A stretch of 43,226 nt of DNA. It comes from a virus. The first letter of the stretch is position 1. Each line of letters starts with the position of its first letter. The translations under genes and the position numbers were made by a program. Below the pieces are notes generated by a model that saw only the letters and a list, made by a program, of their open reading frames with translations, was not told the DNA's origin and searched no databases. Of this stretch, positions 17,653 through 43,226 are shown piece by piece. Location: IMG/VR virus record IMGVR_UViG_3300025006_000005. The stretch is one strand, 5' to 3'.

Positions 17653-17946
17653 TCAATACCAGACCCCGCGTTGGTCAAGCGTCGCCTGCTCTGCAATCTG
17701 CGCCTCGCGGTCGTGCCATTCCTTCGACACGGCAATGAGGTTCGTCTCGTCCCAGAACAGCGCTTCGTTGCCGCGATGTTCCTTGTCGTGATGGATCACC
17801 GGGCTGTTCGGCGCCGGATGTTTGCCGATCAGCAGCACGCCCGTCTTTTGGCAAATGTATCTGTCGCGCAAAAGGATACGCTGGCGCAGCTTCTGCCAGC
17901 GCGCCGTCTTGTACCAAGCGCGCCATGGCGCTGCGCTCGTACTCAT
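17653..17946 (-). CDS. HNH endonuclease (terminase-associated)
   Basis: WYKTARWQKLRQRILLRDRYICQKTG...VIHHDKEHRGN...NLIAVSKEWHD. The start is uncertain: ATGs at 17946 and 17973, ORF open to 18063. Confidence 0.85.
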   Translation of the reverse strand: MSTSAAPWRAWYKTARWQKLRQRILLRDRYICQKTGVLLIGKHPAPNSPVIHHDKEHRGNEALFWDETNLIAVSKEWHDREAQIAEQATLDQRGVWY

Positions 17947-18085
17947 CGGTCCACTCGGTGCATAGGGATCCATCGCGGCGAAGACTGTCGGCGCTGTCGC
18001 CTCTGTCCTGCCTGGGGCCGCCGGCGCTTCCAACTCCGCGAGGGAGGAGTGCGACACAAGCACGGCTCGTCCTGGGTGGAATCGG

Positions 18086-18730
18086 CTAGCCGAGTCGCTT
18101 CAGGCTTGCAAGGTCCATGTCCACAGGCGTCACGCGTCCCAAAATGTCGAGTTCGACGACGCCGCGGTTTTCGTCGAGCGACGTCAAACGCGCCAGCCAC
18201 CCCGCGAACGGACCGTCATTGACAACGACGCTGTCGCCAGCCTCCAGCGCTCCTGCGACCTTCGCCTTCAGCTTATCGTCGTGCTTGAGATCCTGCTGCA
18301 ATTTGAGGACCATAGCGTCAGGCACGGCGCATGGCAGTCCGCCCGAGGACAGCAGGCCGCGCACACCTTCGACGGTGCGGATCGCCGCCCAATGCTCCGG
18401 ACACCATGCGATCCTGACGAGCACATAGCCCGGAAACGCGACGACGATCCGCTCGGGACGCGGCCCGCTTCCTGCTCCCCTGCGTCGGCCGGATTTGATT
18501 TTGCATGTCGGCAGCCAGTGCGGAACGCCCGCCTCGGCAAGCGCCTTTTCCACAGCTTTCTCATGCCCGACGCTCACCGACAGCACATACCAGCGCACGT
18601 CGTCGAGGCTCATGCCCGCCGCCGCAAGCAGCGCTTCGGAGCGCCGCGTCATCCGCCAGCGCTCCACCGACTGCATCCGCAGCCGCTCCGCATCATCGCC
18701 CAGCTCGGCAGGATCAACATGCCTGGTCAT
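18086..18730 (-). CDS. NusG/RfaH-like transcription antitermination factor (NGN + KOW)
   Basis: NGN motifs WYVLSVSVGHEKAVEKAL and FPGYVLVRI. KOW motif GDSVVVNDGPFAGWLARLTSLD. The start is uncertain, with several in-frame ATGs. Confidence 0.7.
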   Translation of the reverse strand: MTRHVDPAELGDDAERLRMQSVERWRMTRRSEALLAAAGMSLDDVRWYVLSVSVGHEKAVEKALAEAGVPHWLPTCKIKSGRRRGAGSGPRPERIVVAFPGYVLVRIAWCPEHWAAIRTVEGVRGLLSSGGLPCAVPDAMVLKLQQDLKHDDKLKAKVAGALEAGDSVVVNDGPFAGWLARLTSLDENRGVVELDILGRVTPVDMDLASLKRLG

Positions 18731-20084
18731 AGCTTTCCGCCCTCTCCGCATCGCTTCCGCCCCTGATCGCCGCCTCGAATTCGCCTAAGCCCGCCGGTCC
18801 GCCCTTTGGCGCGTAGAACACCTCGCCGCGCTCGAAGTCGGGCAGCCACGGCCAGCCCCGCGCCGCGAACGCCTCCCGCCACGCCGCGAGCACCGCGCTT
18901 GTCACAGGTATCGGCTCCATCGCCGCCTTCAGCCCATGCCAGCGCTCGCCGAACACGGCGCCGCCCTTTTGGCTGCGCAGCGCTCGCCATTGCCACACCC
19001 GCTCCCATGCCGCCCGCAATGCCGGGTCCGACAAGAGAGGCCGTTCACGCAGACGCGCCGCCGCTGCCTCGTCGCTCGGTCCCGCCAGCAGGTCCGCGAA
19101 GAGCTTCGCCATGCCGACGGGGCCCGCCATCGCCGCCCAGCCATCGGGCTTTGCCTGTTCCTCGGGCCTGGCGCTTGCCGCCTTGCGCGCCTCGAGCCGC
19201 CGCATGATCGCCGGATCGAGCCCGTCCCACGCCCTGTCCCGCAGGAACACGCCGATCGGCATCGGCTTCTTGCCGCGATCGGCGATGTCGAGGAGGTAGG
19301 CGTCGCGCCAGCGCTCGGCAGCCTCACGGTCGGCCAGCGACAGCGCAGCGAACTGCTTGGCGATCCAGCGCAGCGAGGTCGTGTCCCAATCCGCCCATGC
19401 TCCGGCGACGAACCCGCGCCCCGAGCAAAGCCGTTGGACGCGCTTCCGAAACGCCGCCGTCTGCGGATCGTCGGCTGCCCCGCTCGTATCGTCGGCAGCG
19501 TCCCCGTCGGCGTTCTGGTCCTGCCCTTCCTGCCCGACCGCGCGCGCGCCCTCTCTCTCAAGGGCGGTAATGGGAGGATCTATGGGAGGTATATATAAAG
19601 ACCTACCGGAACTGGTTGCCGGTAGGCTTTGCGTCTGGTTGCCGGTAGGCTCGGCGTCTGGTTGCCGGTAGGCCCTACCGGCAGAATTTGCCGGTAGGCT
19701 CGATTCGCCCCCCGATTCACCCCCCGATTCTGCCCCGGATCCCGCTCCGGATTCGCCCCCCGTTTCGCGCTTCAGGTTCCGGCAGCGTTCCGCCCCGTCG
19801 CTGATATTGGCGGCGAGATCGAGCACGATCCAGTCGGCTTCGCGCACGCCTTTTTCGCCATGCTGGCGCTGCCGCCTGATCAGGCCCCAATCCTCGAGCC
19901 GCTGCAGCCATTCGCGCACCGTGCGCTCGGAGACCTCCGCCGCCTCGGCAAGATCGGACTGGCTCGCCCAGCCCTTGATCAGCCCTTCGGGATCGGCATA
20001 GTCGGCAAGGCACATCAGGATCGACTTCGCCGAGGGCGAGCCGAGCCGCTGGTCCTTCGCCCAGGCCGACGCTTTCCAGCTCAT
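18714..20084 (-). CDS. Replication initiator-like protein (N-terminal winged helix; iteron origin inside the gene)
   Basis: 456 aa. The N-terminus MSWKASAWAKDQ..AKSILMCLADYADPEG..SERTVREWLQRLEDWGLI is typical of phage O/DnaD-like wHTH proteins. Iterons lie within the central low-complexity linker. Confidence 0.65.
   Translation of the reverse strand: MSWKASAWAKDQRLGSPSAKSILMCLADYADPEGLIKGWASQSDLAEAAEVSERTVREWLQRLEDWGLIRRQRQHGEKGVREADWIVLDLAANISDGAERCRNLKRETGGESGAGSGAESGGESGGESSLPANSAGRAYRQPDAEPTGNQTQSLPATSSGRSLYIPPIDPPITALEREGARAVGQEGQDQNADGDAADDTSGAADDPQTAAFRKRVQRLCSGRGFVAGAWADWDTTSLRWIAKQFAALSLADREAAERWRDAYLLDIADRGKKPMPIGVFLRDRAWDGLDPAIMRRLEARKAASARPEEQAKPDGWAAMAGPVGMAKLFADLLAGPSDEAAAARLRERPLLSDPALRAAWERVWQWRALRSQKGGAVFGERWHGLKAAMEPIPVTSAVLAAWREAFAARGWPWLPDFERGEVFYAPKGGPAGLGEFEAAIRGGSDAERAESYDQAC
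19588..19700. repeat. Putative origin: AT-rich GGTATATATAAAGAC plus 3 exact 16-bp iterons CTGGTTGCCGGTAGGC at 23-bp phase, a 4th partial copy and a palindrome GCCGGTAGGcCCTACCGGC
   Basis: Iterons at 19612-27, 19635-50 and 19658-73, with TTGCCGGTAGGC at 19688-99. Inverted CCTACCGG at 19602-09 and 19674-81. Confidence 0.7.
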
Positions 20085-21922
20085 TCCGCCGCCTCCAGCA
20101 ATTCCCCGTTCGACCGCGCGCGCTCCTTCGGCGCGGCATCCGCCATGATCGCGGCGACCTCCGCCTGCATCATCGCTACCGAGACCGCATTGCCGATCTG
20201 CTTGATCTGCTCCGTCTTCGTGCCGCCGAACTCGTAGGCCTGTTCGTCGGTCGTGAACCCCATGGCGGCCGCGAGCTCGTGCGGCTCCAGCATGCGGAAG
20301 AGGATGTCGTAGGTTGGCTCGGAGATCGGCTCGACCAGGTCGACATGGCCGCGCGCAGCGATCGTCGGGGCCGGAGCGCCGACATCGTGCACCCGCGGCG
20401 CCTGACCCGCCCGCTCGCCGTGCTGGGCCGTGATGAAGGCAAGCTCGCCGCGATTGGCCCCGGTAATGGTTGGCAACGGCTCGCCGGGTCCGCGCGCGCG
20501 GTCTCCATCTCCGGCATGCGTCACCGGCATGACGATGGCGAATTCGCCGCCCTTGGCCGTCGTCAGCGTCGGGATCGGCTCCGCCACGTCGCGCGGTCCG
20601 TTGCCGCCCTTCGAGTGCGTCACGGGAACCACGATGCCGAACCGGTCTTTCGTCGTGACAGTCGGCAGCGGCTCGTCTCCGCTCTGCGCCGCCTGAGTCA
20701 TGCCGTAGTAGGAGGTGATGAGCAGGTGCGAATGCTTGGCCACCTGCGTCGGTGCCGGCTCGTCGACCGAACGCGGCGCGCCCTCGGCATGGCGCGACAG
20801 CACGAACGGCTCGACCACCCCGAAATTGCCGCCTCCGGCATGGATCGCCCCGATCGGCTCGTCGATGCTGCGAGACCGACGCGAATGCGGGTCGGCTTCG
20901 CTGGCATCGATGCCGTGAGCGGCCGACATGACGAATGGTGCAACGATGGCGAGACCGCCGTCCGTGGTGATAGTCGGCAGCGGAGCGTCATCGCCCGAAA
21001 CGCAGAGTCCGTTGGCGCGCGGCATCGCCGTGCGAACAACCACCGGCTCGGCAAGCCCGATATGGCCGCCGTTCGCCGCAATGGTCGGAAGCGGCATGTC
21101 GATCCCCTGCGCCGCCATGTGGTTGCGCAGGATGACGAGATAGGGCTCCGGCCAGCCGAACTTCACCGCCCCGGCATGGATGCGCGCCAATGTCTTGGCC
21201 GCCAGCGGCTTCTTGCGGTTGAGGATCGATTTGCCCTTGATGGACCAGTCGATGATCTCGCGCGCCGGCCGCCACGGCTTCATGTCGCCGAATAGGTCGG
21301 ATGCGCCCTTCGGACCGTGCGTCAGCGGCGCCCAGCGCACCGTCCGCTTGTCGCTCCTCGCCTTCAGGATGAAACGCTGCCGCGTCGTGGCGTCGCCATA
21401 GTTCGCCGCGTTGAGCTTGCGCCATTCCGGATCGAAGCCGAGCCGCTTCAGCGTCTCGATCCAGGCATGGAAATATTCGCCCTTGCGGCTCGCGACCGGC
21501 TTGCCCGTGCGATGATCGACAGGCCCCCATCCGGTAAACTCCCAGACGTTCTCGATGATGATCCGCTTGACGCGAAGCTCCGTCAGCCAGGTGACGATGT
21601 GCCATGGGTCCGAGCGCTGCTGGTCCGAGGTGGGCTTGCCGCCGCGCGCCACGGAATGGTGCGTGCATGTCGGCGATGCCATCAGGAGGTCGAGATAGCC
21701 CTCGGGCACGAGCAGATGCGGGCGCACCGTCGCGATATCCTGCACATAGTGCCGCGCTTCCGGGTGGTTGCGCCTGTGCGTCTCGATCGCCGTGGGCCAA
21801 TGGTTGACGCAGACGAGCTCCATTTCGAGCCCGAGCGAGGCGAGCGCCCGCGCGCAGCCCGTCGACGAGCCGCCCGCGCCGCACAGAAGGTCCGCTACAA
21901 GGATCTTGCGCTTGCCCGTCAA
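20081..21922 (-). CDS. DNA (cytosine-5) methyltransferase with eight tandem TRD-like modules
   Basis: The start was trimmed to the TTG at 21922 (TTGA overlap with the upstream stop). Motif I DLLCGAGG, motif IV SPTCTHHS, motif VI IIIENV, motif VIII TRQRFIL, motif IX FRMLEPHELAAAMGF, motif X QIGNAV. Confidence 0.85.
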   Translation of the reverse strand: MTGKRKILVADLLCGAGGSSTGCARALASLGLEMELVCVNHWPTAIETHRRNHPEARHYVQDIATVRPHLLVPEGYLDLLMASPTCTHHSVARGGKPTSDQQRSDPWHIVTWLTELRVKRIIIENVWEFTGWGPVDHRTGKPVASRKGEYFHAWIETLKRLGFDPEWRKLNAANYGDATTRQRFILKARSDKRTVRWAPLTHGPKGASDLFGDMKPWRPAREIIDWSIKGKSILNRKKPLAAKTLARIHAGAVKFGWPEPYLVILRNHMAAQGIDMPLPTIAANGGHIGLAEPVVVRTAMPRANGLCVSGDDAPLPTITTDGGLAIVAPFVMSAAHGIDASEADPHSRRSRSIDEPIGAIHAGGGNFGVVEPFVLSRHAEGAPRSVDEPAPTQVAKHSHLLITSYYGMTQAAQSGDEPLPTVTTKDRFGIVVPVTHSKGGNGPRDVAEPIPTLTTAKGGEFAIVMPVTHAGDGDRARGPGEPLPTITGANRGELAFITAQHGERAGQAPRVHDVGAPAPTIAARGHVDLVEPISEPTYDILFRMLEPHELAAAMGFTTDEQAYEFGGTKTEQIKQIGNAVSVAMMQAEVAAIMADAAPKERARSNGELLEAAE

Positions 21923-22446
21923 TTCCCGCCCCCATATCCGTTCAGCCAGGCCATGAATTCCGCCTTCAGCGCCTTCCAGCGCGCAGCCGCTTCGCCGTCC
22001 GTGTTGAGATGCTTGCGCGAGCGGATGCCCAGCGCCGTCCGCAAGAGCGCCGCGGTCGCTTCCGCGTCGGCAGGCAGATCCGCCTTTGCCCGGTCGGCGA
22101 GGAATCGCCCCCATGCCGGCCGCGCGCAGGCCATCGCCGCCTCTGCCGCGTAGTCCTTCGGAGCCTCTGTCCCGGCCTTAAGCTTCGCGCTCGCGCGCTC
22201 GCCGGGCTTCTGTTCCCCGTCCGCCAGCAGCGCCAGCAGAAACCGCAGATCCTCCGGCGCGTTGGCGACGAGCTCGATTTCGTCGGGGGTCGCCCGCTCG
22301 AAGGCGCAGAGCCGCGCAACCGGACGGCCCGCCGCGTCCAGCACCTCCAGCGCCGTCGCCGGTCCATCGGCCACGATCACCCATGACGCCGGCCCGATCG
22401 CATCGAGCCTCGACCTGATGCGTTCCAGCCGATCGGCCCCCGTCAT
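21919..22446 (-). CDS. Hypothetical protein
   Basis: 175-aa ORF coupled on both sides. No motif recognised. Confidence 0.5.
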   Translation of the reverse strand: MTGADRLERIRSRLDAIGPASWVIVADGPATALEVLDAAGRPVARLCAFERATPDEIELVANAPEDLRFLLALLADGEQKPGERASAKLKAGTEAPKDYAAEAAMACARPAWGRFLADRAKADLPADAEATAALLRTALGIRSRKHLNTDGEAAARWKALKAEFMAWLNGYGGGN

Positions 22447-24532: not shown

Positions 24533-24872
24533 GTCCGTTCTCCTCACGCGCCGCAGAGCCAGTCTCTGTCCCGCCTTTAAGCGGCAAGCCGCTGGCGGCC
24601 CCGTGTTGCCCGCCATCGTCCGTCAGGAGCACGCCGCGGTCGCCCGGCACGATGCCGAGCGCGCCCCACAGCCGCGCGCGATCGCGCCCATTGTCGAGCC
24701 GGCCCATGAACGCCAGATCGAACGCGGTATTGGTGACGCCCGCCGCCTTGCGGATCTGCGCCTTGGCCTTGCGCGTCGCATCCATCAGCGCGCCGCCCGA
24801 AAGCCCGTGTGTCGCGAAGGCGACCCGGCCGCGCAGGAAGAAGCGGAGCATGGCGGGCGAAAAATCAGGCAT
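24525..24872 (-). CDS. Hypothetical protein whose C-terminus is encoded by a palindromic repeat element
   Basis: The start was trimmed to the ATG at 24872 (MPDFSPAMLRFF...). 115 aa. The last ~25 aa (..HGAASGLPLKGGTETG..) are read from element copy 24562-24602. Confidence 0.5.
   Translation of the reverse strand: MPDFSPAMLRFFLRGRVAFATHGLSGGALMDATRKAKAQIRKAAGVTNTAFDLAFMGRLDNGRDRARLWGALGIVPGDRGVLLTDDGGQHGAASGLPLKGGTETGSAAREENGHA
24562..24602. repeat. Palindromic interspersed element, variant 1 (inverted copy)
   Basis: GTCTCTGTCCCGCCTTTAAGCGGCAAGCCGCTGGCGGCCCC is the reverse complement of 28834-28875, differing by 2 substitutions and 1 indel. Confidence 0.85.
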
Positions 24873-26505
24873 CGGCGGATGTTCCTGTCGCCAGCTCTGC
24901 TGCCTTGGCACAAAAGGCCGCCCATTCGGATACGATGGCCTTGCGTGCTGCCGCCTCTGTCCGGGCGCGTTTGTGGGGACCGGCGACCTTTCCGAGCCAA
25001 TAGGAATAGATCCAACCGTCTGCTGCTTCGGCCGGCGGGAATATGGCGCCGACCTCCAGCGGTCCGGCCATCGCCAGGATGCGGCCACGCGGAGGCATCG
25101 CCTGGTGCCAAGTCAGGCGCAGTGTAGCGGTTTGCGACGCGTCGCCGGCATGGGCGGCAGGACGCTCTTCCGCACCGCTTGTATCCGGCCGGAACCACGG
25201 CCGCTTCAGGCCCGTTTCCGTCCCGCTCTTAAGCTCCCTGCGGTCGCTGGCGGGCCCCTGGGCCTCCCCACCGCTGTTCTCCCCCCTTGAGAGGGAGATG
25301 TCCGGAAGGACAGAGGGGGGTGAAGCGCTCCCCCCATTGCCGTCGCCGGCCTCATACCCCCACGCATCCCAGCCCGGCCGGGCGCGGCGGGCGAACATCT
25401 CCAGCCGCGCCATTGCCGGATAGAGCCGCTCGATCGTCTCGGCGAAAAAGTCCGGCTTGGCCGAATGCGGCCCCTTGCGCTCGCGGCGGACAGTCTCCGG
25501 CTGCGATCCCGGCAGAGGCGCCGCCACGTCCCCGCGCCGGCCGATCAGGAGGAGCTCATGCCGGTCGCGGCCCCAATAGCCGGTGCCGGCGACTTCCTTG
25601 TCCCAGATCCAGTGATGCACATAGGCAAAACCCCACGCCCGCATGACATCGAGCGCCTCCGACAGCATGGGGTTGATCGCCCAAAGGAACAGCACCGCGT
25701 CCGCCGTCGCGGGATCGCCGAGCTCGGCGAACAGCGCCGCGATCTCCGGCGTCGTCATTGTCGGGTAGTGGTTTTCCGCGCTCTTCTCGCGCCCGGTTAC
25801 TTCCGAGCGCACGCCGAAACGCCAGGGCGGATCGGCATAGATGACTGGATAGCGGCGATCGAGCCGCCTCGGCGCGGCCGTGCCGCCATCGCCCGCGATG
25901 CGGCGCATGTTTTCCAGCCGCTCGTCATGACGCCGGCGCTGACGTTCGGCGCGAATCGCTTTTGCCCGCGCAACGATCTCGCGTTCCTCGCGGTCGAGGA
26001 TTTCGCGCTGCGTCTCATGTTCGAGATCGGAGAGCGCTTCGCCCGCATGGACGGTCACGCGTCCCTCGCGGATCGCCTCGACCAGTTCGCCCGCGCCGCG
26101 CTCCTGGATGCGCCGCGCCGCCCTCACGGCGCGCTCGGATATCGACAGACGCTCCGCTGCCTTCCGGGTCGGCAAATTTGCCGCCCCTGCCGTTACCTGG
26201 TTGATGCCGACATCCCAATCGACGATCCGCGCGGCGATCATCGCGCGCTGGCTTTCGGTCAGGTGGCGGCGATGCAGATTGTGCGACAGCACGAAGTTGA
26301 GCGGATCGTCACCCTCGTATTCGACGAAGCGTGGTTCGACCTCGGCAAACCGGCAGGCCGCCAACCGGTTGCGTCCGTCGAGCACCATGCCGTCCAGCAG
26401 CACGATCGGAACCCGCTGGCCGAACGTCACGATGTCGTCGGCGAGCTCGCGCAGTTCGCTTTCGGGCAGCATCGGGAACAGTTCAGCCAGCGGGTGCGGT
26501 TGCAC
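24865..26505 (-). CDS. ParB-like nuclease domain / MT-A70-family N6-adenine DNA methyltransferase, with a repeat-borne linker and extra C-terminal module
   Basis: 546 aa. ParB-N: RVPIVLLDGMVLDGRNRLAA. MT-A70: IYADPPWRF, HYPTM, VLFLWA and HELLLIGRRG. Repeat elements encode aa ~391-431, and aa 470-546 look like a separate module. Confidence 0.85.
   Translation of the reverse strand: MQPHPLAELFPMLPESELRELADDIVTFGQRVPIVLLDGMVLDGRNRLAACRFAEVEPRFVEYEGDDPLNFVLSHNLHRRHLTESQRAMIAARIVDWDVGINQVTAGAANLPTRKAAERLSISERAVRAARRIQERGAGELVEAIREGRVTVHAGEALSDLEHETQREILDREEREIVARAKAIRAERQRRRHDERLENMRRIAGDGGTAAPRRLDRRYPVIYADPPWRFGVRSEVTGREKSAENHYPTMTTPEIAALFAELGDPATADAVLFLWAINPMLSEALDVMRAWGFAYVHHWIWDKEVAGTGYWGRDRHELLLIGRRGDVAAPLPGSQPETVRRERKGPHSAKPDFFAETIERLYPAMARLEMFARRARPGWDAWGYEAGDGNGGSASPPSVLPDISLSRGENSGGEAQGPASDRRELKSGTETGLKRPWFRPDTSGAEERPAAHAGDASQTATLRLTWHQAMPPRGRILAMAGPLEVGAIFPPAEAADGWIYSYWLGKVAGPHKRARTEAAARKAIVSEWAAFCAKAAELATGTSADA
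25214..25258. repeat. Palindromic interspersed element, variant 2 (inverted copy)
   Basis: GTTTCCGTCCCGCTCTTAAGCTCCCTGCGGTCGCTGGCGGGCCCC is the reverse complement of 28896-28940, differing by 2 substitutions. Confidence 0.85.
25278..25336. repeat. Second type of G/C-run palindromic element (TCTCCCCCCTTGAGAGGGAGATGTCCGGAAGGACAGAGGGGGG...CTCCCCCC)
   Basis: Internal inverted repeats TCTCCC/GGGAGA and CCCCCC/GGGGGG. From memory, it resembles dispersed intergenic repeats of Rhizobium/Agrobacterium genomes. Confidence 0.5.
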
Positions 26506-38700: not shown

Positions 38701-39389
38701 CAGAGTTTCCCCGCCGCTACGAAGAAGGCGTCGATCTGGTCCTCGGAAAACCCCATCTGCTCGAACCCCGTGGCCATCATCGGTTCGGCCCGAACGAACA
38801 TCACAGAATTGTCGTAGGAGATCTGCACCAGCGGATCCTGCTGACCGATCCACGCCTCAACGATGGATTTCAGGCCGGCGATCTGAAGCTGGAGCTTGAA
38901 CTGCCGGGCCGTGACGGACCGCGGCACCGGATCGGCCAGGATGGTGACGGGGACATCGCCGCCCCATTCGGTCTGGATGGCCGCCTGGTCGGCCGCATAG
39001 GTGTCCTGTGCGTCCTGATCGGCATCTGCGGCAAGACCCGCCCGCACCCGGGCCAATGCCTTGATCTGGTCTGATGCCCCGAAGATCAGCGTCTGGGCGT
39101 CGTCATAAACCGTCCAGACGGGGTTGGCGACGGTCGAGGTCGAGCCGTCCTCATTGGTGACGTCGACCGTTCTGGGAACGCTGGCGTCGGGCTCGGCAAC
39201 CCGCTGCGCCGCCTCATAGGCGAGAACGTCGGTTTCTGCGGAATGCAGGGCGGCGTTCTTGGTCTCGATTGCGGTCCTGTCGGCGGTGGAGATCTGCGTG
39301 ACATCCACCGCGTCCAGAAGGCACTCGAACTGCCCCGTTTCGGTCAGGGACCAGCGGCGCAGCAGGGTATCGTTATAGAGATCGCTCAT
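38700..39389 (-). CDS. Hypothetical protein after the fibre gene (possible fibre assembly/chaperone, DUF4376-like C-terminus)
   Basis: The start was trimmed to the ATG at 39389 (ATGA overlap). The C-terminus ..ARQFKLQLQIAGL...GFSEDQIDAFFVAAGKL resembles DUF4376-type tails. Confidence 0.45.
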   Translation of the reverse strand: MSDLYNDTLLRRWSLTETGQFECLLDAVDVTQISTADRTAIETKNAALHSAETDVLAYEAAQRVAEPDASVPRTVDVTNEDGSTSTVANPVWTVYDDAQTLIFGASDQIKALARVRAGLAADADQDAQDTYAADQAAIQTEWGGDVPVTILADPVPRSVTARQFKLQLQIAGLKSIVEAWIGQQDPLVQISYDNSVMFVRAEPMMATGFEQMGFSEDQIDAFFVAAGKL

Positions 39390-42300
39390 TGGACTGCCAC
39401 CGGGTTGAACACCGCACGAACGCCCCACTCGATGTTCTTCGAGGAGACGCCGGTCGCGGTGATGTCGATCGTCTGCGTGGTGGTGTTGGCCGAGACCGTC
39501 ACGGCCATGGTCGAGGTGACCTCGTTGATGACCCGCTGGGTGGACGAGCCGGAGAGCGCGATGTTGCCCTCGCCCGGCCGGTAGGCCATCACAACGTCCT
39601 CATAGGCCGCCAGTTGCTCGGAGGAGGGATCGGCATACTCACGGGCGACGGTGCGGATCACCCATTCCCCTGCCTCGCCCTTGTCCATCGGCAGACGGGC
39701 AATGACGGTGGGCGTGGCGTTGGTTGTCACCCCGCAGCCCGGCAGATCGACGGTGAGGCGATCATAGAGCGGCGGGCCTCCATTGTGGCCGATCCCCGCT
39801 GCCGCCGCTTCCCTGAGAGGAATGGAAGGCAGCGAGATGTCGGCACTGTCACTGTCCCGCGTGGTGGTGATCCCCGCCTTTGCATCGATGCCGGTATAGA
39901 CGGTCGAGTCCGTGTCGGAGACCGTCAGCCCCTTGATGCGTGCCGAGCCCGCAGTGGTGGCGACATGCAGAAGGTCGGTCGTGTCGTCATAGGCCAGAGC
40001 CGAGACGGAATCCCCCGGCAGCAGGCACTTGGCCCCGCTCTCGAACAGGTGGCGCTCGTCCTCGTAGATGGCACGGATCTGAGCTGGGGTGGGAGCGGTG
40101 AGGCCAAGGCGTGGCAACGCCATGTTCCCGTCGCTCATCGCGCCGTATCCTCCGACACCTGCCCCAAAATTCAACGGTACGGTCAGATTGGTGAGGCTGG
40201 TATTGGCATTCGTGAGCGTCCCGGATGCCTGCAATACGCCGTCGACCCAAAGCTCGGCCGTGGTTCCGCGCCTCACCACCATGAACAGATGCCAGTTCCC
40301 GTCATCAAACGCGAGCGCACCTGTTATTGTGTCTGAGGTTGAGTAGTTATCGTCGGTCGCGCGGAAGACAGGCACACTCGTCGTGGCGCTGATTCCCAAG
40401 TAGAAATTGCCGTTGCCCGTGGTCCCATCTGTCTGGACGTAGCGCCGTTCTGCGCCGGTCGCGGTCTGCTTGAGCCACAGCGCAATCAGAAAATCTCCGG
40501 TTCCTGGCTGGAACCCATGCCCTGCAGGCAACGCCAGATAATTGCTGCTGGAGAACCCGCCATAGGCCGCCAGTTCGCCTGAGTTGACCGCAGCACGGGT
40601 GATCGTTCCCACCACAGTCGGGTGGTTGGCGGCAACAGAGCGGTCGGTGGCGACGCGCTGGATGGTGACGTTGTCGATCGACCCGTCGAAATCGCTGCTC
40701 GGAAGGAAGCTGACCGTGTTGTTGCCCGTGACGGCAATCAGGCTTTGCGAGCTCGCACCATTGGCCGAAATCGCTGATCCGGCGACTGTTGTCGTTCCCT
40801 CAAGACGCGGCGTTACAGAACCGGCAGTGCGCCCGGAAACTGTGACCGTAACCCTATAGCGGGCCCCCACAACCAGCGTCGCCGCCTTCGCCAAGGGGAC
40901 GGTCGATCCCGCCGCATGCAATGCAGTCCCGGATGAAAGAGACCAGTTGGTCCCCGCGCTTGCCGCCCAAGCCGCCAGCATCGCAGCCGTGTCGGCATAC
41001 CCGGAGAAATCATCGCTGAGCGGCGTTGCCCCCACCAGGCTCGACACGTCTGCGGTGCTCTCGGCAAGGGCGAACTTGATGGAGCCCACCTGCCAGCCGG
41101 TGTTGTATTTGCTCGTGAGGTAGGCGGCGGCATCCTCGACCGGATACTGTGAAATCCGGGAGCGCTTGACGATGTTCAGGCCGCCAGAAAAACCTACGGC
41201 AAGGCCGCCTCTGACGGACACCGGACGCAGATTGGTGTTTGCGTCGCCAATGCCCGGATAATGCCCGCTGCTGGCAGCGTCTGACTGGCGATTATATAGA
41301 TGGTCCGGAGAGAAGCTCGTGACCGCATAGGACTTCCGGCGCGCCACTAAGAGGGGCGTTGCACTGGAATCCAACTGCCAGATGAGATCGCCATTGCTGG
41401 GGTCGAATGCGACTTCGCGGGAATTCGCCGTCGTGGCCGAGTTCGCCACCCTGCCATCCCAATGGATGACGCTCACGCCCCCTGCCGTGGCAACCGCAAC
41501 TGTCGGCGCAGGCAGGTTCAGCCGGTTCGGATCGGCCGGGGTGCCCGGAAGGACCGTGGCGGCGACGTCGTTGACGGCGCGGCTGATAATGGCTCCAGGT
41601 TGCCAGCCGACGGTAGCGAAGGACGCCCCGTCGCTCCTGTTGGCGATGCGTCCGACATATCCGCCAGTGGTAATACCAAGACCGCTGCGCCAACTGCGAT
41701 CTAAGATCAGATCAATGCCGTGGACGTCGTAGGACGGCGCCCCGAAATAGATGTTGCCGTTGATCGCAGCTAGGCATGCAGCGGTGATGGTGTTGAGAGC
41801 GCCCGTCATGTTGCCGACGTTGTTAGTAAACACCGTCCACATCGGGCACGATGCCTGATCCAGATCATAGATAGTGAGCGTAGCGGCACGCGCCACGATC
41901 AGCGCCTTCGACGGGAACTCGGCCCGATTGCCGCGATAGACCTGCGTCTGGCCCGAGCCGGCGTTGAGCTTGTAGAAATTCCCGTCCGTCGTGTTGCCGT
42001 AATAGGCCCCGGTCGTGGCGCCCGAGATGGCCCGCGCCGCCGTTTCATTGGCCGCAAGCCCCAGCCACGCGCCGGTCAGGCTTTCCTTGTACCAGCTCGT
42101 CGCCTTGGTCTTCTTCCGCCACCGACCCTTGTCGCTGTCGCGCTCGGTGTCATAGACAAACACGTCGACCACATCGGCGGCCGAAACGATCGCGCGGGCA
42201 GACGATGAAAGCAGGCCCAGCGTCGCATCATAGCTCGAGACATTGCCCAGCGCCGTGTTGAGGCTCGACTGGATGCTCTCCACGCTCGCCTTGTCGGTCG

Positions 42301-43216
42301 CCACCTGAGCAGCATCGACATCGGCCGCCTGACGTGAGGCTTCCGAGGACGTGGCCGATCCATCCGCAGCAACGGCAGAAGCGGCCGCATTGGTCTCCGA
42401 GGTCGCGGCGTTGGTCTCGCTGGTGGCGGCATTGGCTTCAGACGTGGCAGCGGCGGTCGCTGAGTTCGACGCGGCTGTGGCGCTGTTGCCGGCATTGGTT
42501 TCAGAGGTCGAGGCCGCAGACGCACTCGCCGCGGCGGCTGCTTCACTGCCAGCCGCATTGGTCTCGGATATTGCAGCAGCAGCCTCCGAATCCGCAGCAG
42601 CCGAAGCGCTGGCAGCCGCGGCCGTGGCGGAATTGGCCGCGTTGGTCTCAGCCGCCGTGAATTCGGCCGTCAGATTGCCCTTGAGCGCGACCACGGCCCA
42701 ATAGGTCTGCCAATCGGCTCCCACTCCGGGCTCGGTCGATGCTCCCGAGGTATGGGCGAGGATGCAGCGATAGGACGAGCCGTCGTCATAGACGCCATCC
42801 CGCAGCGCATAGGCCGTCGAGGTCGCCCAGTCGCCCTGCCACGCAATGCCGGGGGCGCCCTGTGTTCCTGCCGCGACCACCGAAATCGAATTGGCCGTCT
42901 TGACGTGAACGCCGATCACCGGCGCGTAATAGAGCGTTTCGTCGAAGGCAGAAGGATCGGCCCGCTTGAGCGTGATGGTCGAGACCTGCCCGAAGGGAAG
43001 CGATCCCGTCAGGCTCTTGTCCGCCGAAAACCCGATGATGCCGGACGCTGCCTGCGAGGTATCGAGCGTCAGGGTGATCGAGCCCGTCGACCAGTCGACC
43101 TTGGCATAGGTCCAGGTTGACCCCGACAGATCCATCGCGGACCCGTCCGAGTCCGTGATGGTGATCTGCTCAGACCAGTCGTCGCCCGGAACGAGAGAGA
43201 TTGCTGAAAAGGTCAT
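39386..43216 (-). CDS. Giant tail fibre/receptor-binding protein (CBM5/12-like, Ala-rich repeat coiled coil, LamG-like lectin domain)
   Basis: 1276 aa. AWQGDWATSTAY..GSSYRCILAHTS..WQTYW covers ~42683-42844. The ATSETNA-type 7-aa repeats cover ~42310-42665. FLIALWLKQ...NWHLFMVVRRGTTAELWVDG (LamG-type) covers ~40050-40640. Confidence 0.8.
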   Translation of the reverse strand: MTFSAISLVPGDDWSEQITITDSDGSAMDLSGSTWTYAKVDWSTGSITLTLDTSQAASGIIGFSADKSLTGSLPFGQVSTITLKRADPSAFDETLYYAPVIGVHVKTANSISVVAAGTQGAPGIAWQGDWATSTAYALRDGVYDDGSSYRCILAHTSGASTEPGVGADWQTYWAVVALKGNLTAEFTAAETNAANSATAAAASASAAADSEAAAAISETNAAGSEAAAAASASAASTSETNAGNSATAASNSATAAATSEANAATSETNAATSETNAAASAVAADGSATSSEASRQAADVDAAQVATDKASVESIQSSLNTALGNVSSYDATLGLLSSSARAIVSAADVVDVFVYDTERDSDKGRWRKKTKATSWYKESLTGAWLGLAANETAARAISGATTGAYYGNTTDGNFYKLNAGSGQTQVYRGNRAEFPSKALIVARAATLTIYDLDQASCPMWTVFTNNVGNMTGALNTITAACLAAINGNIYFGAPSYDVHGIDLILDRSWRSGLGITTGGYVGRIANRSDGASFATVGWQPGAIISRAVNDVAATVLPGTPADPNRLNLPAPTVAVATAGGVSVIHWDGRVANSATTANSREVAFDPSNGDLIWQLDSSATPLLVARRKSYAVTSFSPDHLYNRQSDAASSGHYPGIGDANTNLRPVSVRGGLAVGFSGGLNIVKRSRISQYPVEDAAAYLTSKYNTGWQVGSIKFALAESTADVSSLVGATPLSDDFSGYADTAAMLAAWAASAGTNWSLSSGTALHAAGSTVPLAKAATLVVGARYRVTVTVSGRTAGSVTPRLEGTTTVAGSAISANGASSQSLIAVTGNNTVSFLPSSDFDGSIDNVTIQRVATDRSVAANHPTVVGTITRAAVNSGELAAYGGFSSSNYLALPAGHGFQPGTGDFLIALWLKQTATGAERRYVQTDGTTGNGNFYLGISATTSVPVFRATDDNYSTSDTITGALAFDDGNWHLFMVVRRGTTAELWVDGVLQASGTLTNANTSLTNLTVPLNFGAGVGGYGAMSDGNMALPRLGLTAPTPAQIRAIYEDERHLFESGAKCLLPGDSVSALAYDDTTDLLHVATTAGSARIKGLTVSDTDSTVYTGIDAKAGITTTRDSDSADISLPSIPLREAAAAGIGHNGGPPLYDRLTVDLPGCGVTTNATPTVIARLPMDKGEAGEWVIRTVAREYADPSSEQLAAYEDVVMAYRPGEGNIALSGSSTQRVINEVTSTMAVTVSANTTTQTIDITATGVSSKNIEWGVRAVFNPVAVQ

Positions 43217-43226
43217 CCGATCACCC
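43100..43226. repeat. Terminal 127-bp exact duplicate of 1..127
   Basis: Identical string at both ends. Confidence 0.95.

Follow-up and report, generated by a model that had tools for sequence, protein, structure and literature searches.

A phage C5-cytosine methyltransferase family with variable tandem arrays of modules that resemble target-recognition domains

A methyltransferase core interrupted by eight units

The window analyzed here is the whole of a 43,226-nucleotide stretch of viral DNA (IMG/VR record IMGVR_UViG_3300025006_000005). On its minus strand lies a gene for a C5-cytosine DNA methyltransferase (C5-MTase), in which eight tandem units of 25 to 42 amino acids (aa) sit between the conserved catalytic motifs VIII and IX. 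Each unit resembles part of a target-recognition domain (TRD). The gene and its parts are listed below. The unit types (letters) and the division of the array into a constant frame and a variable zone are explained in the next section. The E-values are those of a profile hidden Markov model (HMM) of the unit, and SPR denotes the Bacillus phage enzyme M.SPRI.

20084..21922, minus: C5-cytosine DNA methyltransferase, complete coding sequence, 613 aa, TTG start at 21922, stop codon 20081-20083
21353..21922, minus: N-terminal catalytic half, aa 1-190, with motifs I (LLCGAGGSSTG), IV (SPTC), VI (ENV) and VIII (TTRQRF)
21107..21352, minus: conserved family-specific linker domain, aa 191-272, W.P.THG...KPWR.A.EIIDWS...R.KPLA.KTLARI..G..KF..PEP.LV
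20996..21106, minus: unit 1, type D, GIDMPLPTIAANGGHIGLAEPVVV..., E=6.5e-13; opens the constant frame and is the first unit in most of the 120 closest relatives
20870..20995, minus: unit 2, type G, GDDAPLPTITTDGGLAIVAPFVMS..., E=3.2e-9; variable zone, present, absent or duplicated among relatives
20771..20869, minus: unit 3, type F, SIDEPIGAIHAGGGNFGVVEPFVLS..., E=4e-11; variable zone, Ala in place of Thr
20684..20770, minus: unit 4, type I, SVDEPAPTQVAKHSHLLITSYYG..., E=3.4e-10; constant frame, replaced by variants N and O in some relatives
20591..20683, minus: unit 5, type A, SGDEPLPTVTTKDRFGIVVPVTHS..., E=3.7e-12; constant frame
20492..20590, minus: unit 6, type C, DVAEPIPTLTTAKGGEFAIVMPVTH..., E=8.2e-12; constant frame, falls by BLASTP onto the SPR TRD segment PTITTNKGEGLKIAVEY
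20387..20491, minus: unit 7, type E, GPGEPLPTITGANRGELAFITAQHGER..., E=2.9e-7; constant frame, aligns with SPR 'SHTLSASDWRG'
20312..20386, minus: unit 8, type B, DVGAPAPTIAARGHVDLVEPISEPT, E=1.2e-9; last unit, directly before motif IX, aligns with SPR 'GEPAFTVNTIDRHG'
20084..20311, minus: C-terminal catalytic part, with motif IX (YDILFRMLEPHELAAAMGF), motif X (QIGNAVSV) and the tail; positions 274-320 of PF00145

A preliminary description of the window had taken the protein to be 677 aa long. The minus-strand open reading frame (ORF) of that length is real (20081..22114), but translation almost certainly starts at the TTG at 21922, which probably leaves the first 64 codons of the ORF untranslated. 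We adopted the 613-aa protein because this in-frame TTG is overlapped by the TGA of the upstream gene (TTGA, 21919-21922) and because the Joint Genome Institute (JGI) gene call P0001 starts at the same codon, is also 613 aa long and is 100% identical over all 613 aa. Residue numbers of the 613-aa protein equal those of the 677-aa ORF minus 64.

The protein is a C5-MTase whose core has the Rossmann-like fold of methyltransferases that depend on S-adenosylmethionine (AdoMet), as the preliminary description had proposed for its enzymatic identity. It scores 85.9 bits against PF00145 (cut-off 22; E 4.6e-24), and the match is split into an N-terminal stretch, in which profile positions 3-163 match ORF residues 73-255, and a C-terminal one. 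The TIGR00675 score of 75 bits lies under the strict cut-off of that profile (100.65), and phrog_116 ('DNA methyltransferase') matches at 2.3e-63 over ORF residues 67-667. The C5-MTase motifs stand in canonical order: LLCGAGG (I), SPTC (IV), ENV (VI), TRQRF (VIII), FRMLEPHE (IX) and GNAV (X). Motifs VIII (TTRQRFIL) and IX (FRMLEPHEL) are thus present as first described, with motif X in addition. A profile of the family matches 49 distinct C5-MTase sequences in the PDB, including 3g7u, DNMT1/MET1, M.HhaI, M.HaeIII and DNMT2. All of these alignments break off after motif VIII and restart at motif IX.

Structure prediction agrees with this division. In an AlphaFold2 (AF2) model built from a diverse alignment of 148 sequences, residues 1-255 and 540-600 have a predicted local distance difference test (pLDDT) score above 90; a model built with 50 close homologues had a mean pLDDT of 44.5 and was unusable. 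Foldseek searches of the PDB with the AF2 model returned DNMT1, M.HhaI, DNMT2 and 3g7u, at E-values down to 2e-14, with the core alone aligned. The C-terminal catalytic part reaches pLDDT 94-98 and is also matched in the PDB profile alignments. The linker, about 80 aa from motif VIII to unit 1, has a pLDDT of about 87-93 as far as residue 255, and its columns are invariant or nearly so in two alignments of relatives (A3 and A4).

Motif IV is unusual. In ASPTCTHHS (about 21665-21676), the catalytic Cys stands in SP(T/D)C and not in the near-universal Pro-Cys dipeptide. This variant is kept in all 148 aligned relatives, with S83, P84 and C86 invariant. It might be taken as a sign that the enzyme is something other than a plain writer of DNA 5-methylcytosine (m5C), using another cofactor or substrate (carboxymethyl transfer, RNA), with repeats that bind otherwise. 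The PDB profile matches do include the DNA cytosine C5-carboxymethyltransferase 8yf3 (E=4e-17) and DNMT2/tRNA enzymes. However, the 8yf3 and DNMT2 matches span the generic catalytic fold only, homologues with an equal motif IV variant block m5C-sensitive restriction enzymes, and both the phage context and the TRD-like motifs indicate DNA. We therefore regard such a departure in chemistry as highly improbable. Paracoccus homologues with the SP(T/D)C variant were active in published tests.

The units themselves are well defined. Sites of the form P-x-(P/G)-(T/A)-(I/V/L/Q) occur at ORF residues 341, 378, 420, 453, 482, 513, 546 and 581, exactly where the preliminary description had placed them, and the interval that it gave (20324-21094) is bounded by the first Pro of unit 1 and the end of unit 8. 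Aligned, the units follow the pattern x-(V/I)-D-E-P-x-P-T-(I/V/L)-T-x-x-G-G-x-x-x-φ-V-x-P, in which a Gly-rich loop is followed by a hydrophobic strand. A regular expression for the motif has eight matches in the protein; 20,000 protein shuffles averaged 0.33 and never exceeded 5. The unit HMM, iterated over 120 homologues and more than 1,000 units, detects eight domains, whose E-values lie between 3e-7 and 7e-13. A chance cluster of motifs or a low-complexity artefact is ruled out by the shuffle statistics and by conservation across relatives. The motif is less uniform than had been claimed, in that P-T-(I/V/L) was said to occur in every unit and does so in six. Thr is present in seven of the eight and T-(I/V/L) in six, with unit 3 reading PIGAI (without Pro-Thr) and unit 4 having T-Q.

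Conservation extends to individual units. A unit akin to unit 4 ('...AFLAKHYGG') is conserved among distant phage homologues; unit 5 has seven invariant residues in alignment A1 (L419, T421, T423, R427, F428, V431 and P433); and residues 482-504, in unit 7, are invariant among close relatives. No DNA-level tandem repeat was found in the array by Tandem Repeats Finder (TRF) or by DNA repeat searches, which returned only degenerate 60-88% matches over the motif codons. Because no more than this degenerate similarity remains, the unit duplications must be old.

Distribution and exchange of the units

Arrays of this kind are common. All of the 120 closest relatives (48-75% identical, 574-813 aa) have one, with 7 to 12 units, and the 112 full-length proteins among them have modes of 8 and 9. 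Across 273 full-length relatives the number of units ranges from 4 to 12, and each unit adds about 31 aa of protein length. Nine diverse phage homologues have six to eight units each. Eight units are thus typical, because the wider family spans 4-12 and close relatives peak at 8 and 9; that the protein is a unique, hyper-expanded outlier is ruled out by the same counts.

We also searched a 30-column profile of the unit against 1.84 billion representative proteins (50% identity clusters). At least 1,788 cluster representatives matched at E<=1e-3, 825 at E<=1e-10 and 161 at E<=1e-30, with up to 12 stretches matched in one protein. The preliminary description had called eight units exceptional, a view that does not survive multi-unit arrays in at least 1,788 clusters. 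By tblastn, homologues occur in 135 phage genomes from hosts of many phyla, among them Pseudomonas, Vibrio, Mycobacterium, Aeromonas, Burkholderia, Klebsiella, Myxococcus, Bacteroides and cyanobacteria.

Several family members have features of their own. Homologues encoded by phages reported from the cyanobacteria Microcystis and Dolichospermum are 59% and 40% identical to the protein studied here, which comes from a phage of alphaproteobacterial type; they are closer than most homologues from proteobacterial phages. The chromosome of Paracoccus sp. ME4 carries four separate copies (L016, L019, L044 and L053), presumably in four prophages. A metagenome-assembled genome labelled Exiguobacterium profundum, a Firmicute, contains a copy (L029) that is 70% identical to a Paracoccus phage protein, which suggests mis-binning or recent transfer. 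One member of 1019 aa (P0354) has Hint/intein-type domains (PF07591, PF14528 and PF13403) within the methylase, and another of 813 aa (P0086) has an extra match to PF00550 (phosphopantetheine-binding).

Unit composition varies in whole-unit steps. Clustering the loop-proximal part of 1,006 distinct units gave 17 discrete types, and the 120 closest relatives have 89 architectures, the one studied here being D-G-F-I-A-C-E-B. Differences between types sit in the loop after P-T-I-T, and each type is conserved internally. The frame D...(I/N/O)-A-C-E-B is constant across relatives; the zone that separates D from I is variable, and its G, H/M, F, K, J and L units vary in number and combination. Among pairs of proteins with a core identity of at least 95%, the architecture differs in 85%. 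Alignment A5 shows clean whole-unit insertions, deletions and swaps (for example, P0037, D-G-F-I-A-C-E-B, versus P0071, D-G-H-K-I-A-C-E-B, and the set P0007, P0096 and P0104). Some proteins with about 98-99% identical cores differ by one or two modules, and proteins that are about 98% identical in the catalytic core have gained or lost type F (unit 3) relative to each other. The array therefore tolerates natural whole-unit indels and swaps among near-identical relatives.

Indel breakpoints share a sequence. The inter-unit junction ...EPF(V/I)LS(Q/R)H..GAPRS(V)(D/E)EP... recurs between variable-zone units (20771-21106) where whole units have been inserted or deleted, and it is a plausible substrate for in-frame recombination. 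The array would evolve by such recombination at conserved junctions, with lineages gaining, losing and swapping modules, and the variable zone may diversify under pressure from host restriction. In this cassette behavior the units parallel the TRDs of the multispecific Bacillus phage enzymes, which are modular as well.

Relation to known methyltransferases and possible function of the array

We compared the array with four Bacillus phage enzymes (M.SPRI, M.Rho11sI, M.H2I and M.Phi3TI), using a unit HMM built from the alphaproteobacterial clade only. This HMM matches GLSPTITTNKGEG, GVSPTLTTMGEGH, GLSPTLTTNKGEG and DEPAFTVNTIDRHG in these enzymes. Every match falls either on the (S/P)-P-T-(L/I)-T-T motifs (GLSPTITTNKGEG, GVSPTLTTMGEGH, GLSPTLTTNKGEG), which lie within the variable TRD region of the Bacillus enzymes, or on the element before motif IX (DEPAFTVNTIDRHG). 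The real scores were reached by none of 2000 composition-preserving shuffles of M.Rho11sI or M.SPRI. The best BLASTP alignment with M.SPRI (E=7e-7) places units 6-8 in register with SPR residues 279-375 and runs on into motifs IX-X, with PTITTNKGEG, SHTLSASD and EPAFTVNT as the SPR counterparts of units 6, 7 and 8.

Monospecific enzymes point to the same element. M.HhaI and M.HaeIII share the catalytic motif order and core fold with our protein, and each has a single T-L/T-V motif 22-36 aa before motif IX (AITLSAYGGG, T250-L251, in M.HhaI; NEPAFTVQASGRQ in M.HaeIII), where our protein has eight. Unit 8 is the positional counterpart of this single motif: its Thr lies 23 aa ahead of motif IX, and T250 of M.HhaI lies 22 aa ahead of RKLHPRE. 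A broader unit HMM matches NEPAFTVQASGRQ weakly (E=0.006 for a single sequence), and there is no significant match to the unit HMM in M.HhaI. In these two enzymes the TRD (about 80 aa) is a single folded small domain. A further monospecific enzyme has one 'DKPSPTITT' right before motif IX (PMC11954522). Because HMM and BLASTP results agree on SPR-type TRDs, and because of the position of T-L/T-V in monospecific enzymes, we read the units as repeated copies of a T-L recognition-loop module. The earlier interpretation of the units as TRDs thus stands as regards motif likeness (none of 2000 shuffles; BLASTP of units 6-8) and cassette exchange, and it falls short as regards an independent, active TRD in each unit.

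The protein and the Bacillus enzymes have much in common. All are phage-encoded orphan C5-MTases with one catalytic core, tandem (S/P)-P-T-(L/I)-T-T modules with a Gly-rich stretch between motifs VIII and IX, and a conserved E-P-x-x-T-V element right before motif IX, and module composition varies between related enzymes in both groups. The Bacillus enzymes have two or three T-(L/I/V) motifs and the EPAFTV element, whereas our protein has eight modules and its family 4-12. Unlike the Bacillus enzymes, it also has the SP(T/D)C form of motif IV and the conserved linker of about 80 aa before the array, and the hosts of its family are Proteobacteria and many other phyla, not Bacillus. Identity to M.SPRI is 24-26% in local alignments, too low for a close sequence relationship with the SPR clade. 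Bacillus phages are absent among the 40 tblastn matches listed, which are led by phages of Bradyrhizobium, Microcystis, Dolichospermum, Aeromonas and Burkholderia. Together, the low identity to SPR and the hosts of the matches listed indicate that the protein belongs to a lineage of its own, whose array is analogous, and probably homologous, to that of the Bacillus enzymes. Relative to the known multispecific kind, what is new is the larger number of shorter modules, the different core lineage, the extra linker domain and the enormous distribution.

In the Bacillus enzymes, the independent function of each module is proven. How a single catalytic core makes use of several TRDs in tandem has been a structural puzzle ever since those enzymes were dissected in the 1980s-1990s, and our PDB searches found no solved structure of a multispecific C5-MTase.

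Relatives of the protein have been tested. The m5C MTases JCM7686_0772 and JCM7686_2655, from prophages of Paracoccus aminophilus, were cloned and described as having 'relaxed substrate specificity' (Dziewit et al. 2014, PMC3925955). About 16 kinds of site were partially protected, including those of AluI (AGCT), BsuRI (GGCC), Hin6I (GCGC), HpaII/MspI (CCGG), EcoRII (CCWGG), NciI (CCSGG), Bme1390I (CCNGG), TaiI (ACGT) and XhoI (CTCGAG), as well as those of PvuII, PauI, BglI, CaiI, EcoO109I and HpyF10VI. Sites that were fully cleaved were CGCG, TCGCGA, GATC, GGNNCC, CCWWGG, CTAG, CATG, GANTC, CCGCTC, ACGCGT and CCATGG (PMC3925955 Table S6). This pattern is hard to reduce to one degenerate motif. 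Proteins of this kind, of about 700 aa, are widespread in phages (PMC5537653), and Pyei1_p05 of Paracoccus phage vB_PyeM_Pyei1 is about 69% identical to the P. aminophilus enzymes (PMC6536676).

Our protein is 30% identical to Pyei1_p05 over 96% of its length (E=5e-62). Two P. aminophilus proteins on a 3.61-Mb contig (P0440 and P0441), which we infer to be the tested enzymes JCM7686_0772 and JCM7686_2655, are 68% and 69% identical to Pyei1_p05 and have at least seven units each. The relaxed-specificity prophage MTases of Alphaproteobacteria (about 600-750 aa, PHROG 116) and our protein share, as alignment A3 shows, the core, the linker, seven or eight units, motifs IX-X and the phrog_116 match, and all are solitary phage-borne genes in or near a replication module. 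They differ in that identity is about 30% and unit types are mostly different. The reports consulted on these enzymes give restriction-protection patterns without describing a repeat or TRD array, and we found no description of the tandem units in the literature searched.

From these comparisons, we consider it probable that the protein is a solitary phage anti-restriction C5-methylase in which several TRD-like modules dock alternately at the catalytic loop, so that several short targets are methylated. It is an orphan C5-MTase, without a restriction endonuclease (REase), of a temperate tailed phage, with a single core interrupted by eight modules. Each module combines a shared scaffold, (D/E)-P-x-P-T-(I/V/L)-T, with a type-specific Gly-rich loop and a hydrophobic strand, and would form a beta-hairpin that offers a recognition loop to the major groove. 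Several modules may take turns at target recognition, in the manner of the multispecific Bacillus phage enzymes. Methylation of several unrelated short sequences would then guard the replicating DNA of the phage against many type II restriction systems. The hairpin fold, the use of one module at a time and the number of active modules are what we infer.

A number of observations weigh against this proposal. In the 148-sequence AF2 model, residues 270-535 have a pLDDT of 30-67 and almost no secondary structure. Structure prediction, which the preliminary description had named as a way to tell a TRD fold from a single beta-solenoid, thus yielded a model of the core and, for the array, speaks for neither fold; misalignment of repeats in the multiple sequence alignment may contribute to the low confidence there. 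The unit profile (A2) had no match in the PDB at E<=10. In Pfam scans of constructs that joined each unit to the C-terminus, the PF00145 alignment (positions 256/274-320) never entered any unit, and these constructs, like the no-unit and shuffled-unit controls, scored a flat 28.5-30.3 bits; the Pfam model is thus uninformative for the array. Motif-to-motif spacing is 29-42 aa here versus 41-47 aa in rho11s, so the units are shorter. Six of the eight unit types (D, I, A, C, E and B) are nearly constant across relatives, and some related types are kept across phyla; constant types fit a structural scaffold as well as they fit widely useful specificities. Copy-number change alone is also compatible with a purely structural repeat domain. 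Multi-site methylation is projected by homology from tested enzymes at about 30% identity. Phi2LM21_p23, a related enzyme from a Sinorhizobium phage, showed no activity in E. coli and gave no protection. Protection by the P. aminophilus enzymes was only partial, and the authors speak of relaxed specificity, possibly a 'CC' rule, and not of multispecificity (PMC5537653).

Several of these points would suit a different architecture, in which the units fold into one composite DNA-binding domain, such as a stack or wheel of beta-hairpins, that reads DNA loosely and so has only one specificity, short or degenerate (for example, a context with CC or GC). The small domain of M.HhaI itself consists of several beta-strands, which counts in favor of such a domain. 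So do the six constant unit types and the fact that structural repeat proteins also tolerate copy-number change, together with the reported modification of at least one C of a CC motif (PMC5537653) and the partial protection of every protected site (PMC3925955). However, no simple degenerate motif fits the tests: GCGC is protected and CGCG is not, AGCT and ACGT contain no CC, and CCGG and CCWGG are protected, yet CCATGG, CCWWGG and GGNNCC are not. The discrete unit types, with loop differences and internal conservation, also argue against a composite domain, as does the match of the unit motif to individual, experimentally separable TRDs of the SPR type. On this evidence a composite domain seems to us rather unlikely.

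It is also conceivable, and in our view improbable, that only one or two units (the last, for example) are working TRDs and that the rest are pseudo-TRDs or spacer relics, leaving the enzyme effectively monospecific. Inactive 'pseudo-domains' were reportedly described in Bacillus phage methylases by Lange et al. in 1991, and the last unit stands where monospecific enzymes have their single T-L motif. Unit 3 has lost the Thr of the motif, and the failure of Phi2LM21_p23 to protect DNA in E. coli would fit as well. Relics should decay, yet conservation within the unit types is strong and many residues are invariant; at least 1,788 clusters retain the arrays; and homologues with at least seven units protect many different sites.

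There is a more far-reaching possibility, which we put forward tentatively and think less likely than not to hold: that this very large, almost uncharacterized family of phage C5-MTases carries recombination-shuffled arrays of 4-12 hairpin mini-TRDs of about 30 aa, each or most with a target of its own. These would then be the largest multispecific arrays known, and a natural 'plug-and-play' library of minimal DNA-recognition modules that serve a single catalytic core and are shaped by an arms race with host restriction. Modules that work independently would rank with the smallest elements known to read sequence for a DNA methyltransferase and would be of use for engineering methylation specificity. 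Broad anti-restriction methylation would then be common among temperate phages, both in Proteobacteria and outside them (135 phage genomes and at least 1,788 clusters). Even without independent modules, the family represents an unusual expanded TRD that gives relaxed specificity. Proteins with near-identical cores that differ by modules are natural experiments that could link module to target directly. The value lies in the family and its natural module-swap series, rather than in a single gene.

Phage and neighboring genes

The methylase gene overlaps both of its neighbors.

21919..22446, minus: upstream gene, function not known, phrog_10379; its TGA stop overlaps the methylase TTG
18714..20084, minus: downstream replication initiation protein, HTH_36, phrog_270; its start overlaps the methylase stop

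The TTGA overlap of the methylase start with the upstream stop suggests translational coupling. Because the start of the replication initiator overlaps the methylase stop, we assign the methylase to the replication/early module. No REase gene adjoins the methylase, the neighbors being the phrog_10379 gene and the replication initiator.

Bases 1-127 of the window are the same as bases 43100-43226. Identical ends of 127 bases are the signature of an assembler overlap at k=127, and the window therefore represents a complete phage genome, circular or circularly permuted, with a length of about 43.1 kb. It follows from the circular map that the tail-fibre genes at 39386-43216 and 114-1208 are neighbors. 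The window encodes a large terminase, portal, protease, major capsid, tape measure and tail fibre, and also a CI/LexA-like repressor besides the replication initiator. The nearest homologues of the methylase come from Hyphomicrobiales, among them Methylobacterium, Bradyrhizobium, Mesorhizobium, Microvirga and Kaistia.

A second DNA methyltransferase gene, of the MT-A70 family, lies at 24865-26505 on the minus strand (546 aa; PF05063 2.7e-21; phrog_21315 7e-163; phrog_359), so the phage has a probable adenine methylase besides the C5 methylase. Side by side on the minus strand are genes for an HNH endonuclease (17653-18063) and a NusG-like antiterminator (18086-18751; PF02357, phrog_6386). The HNH gene directly precedes that of the large terminase, as is typical of HNH-terminase packaging arrangements.

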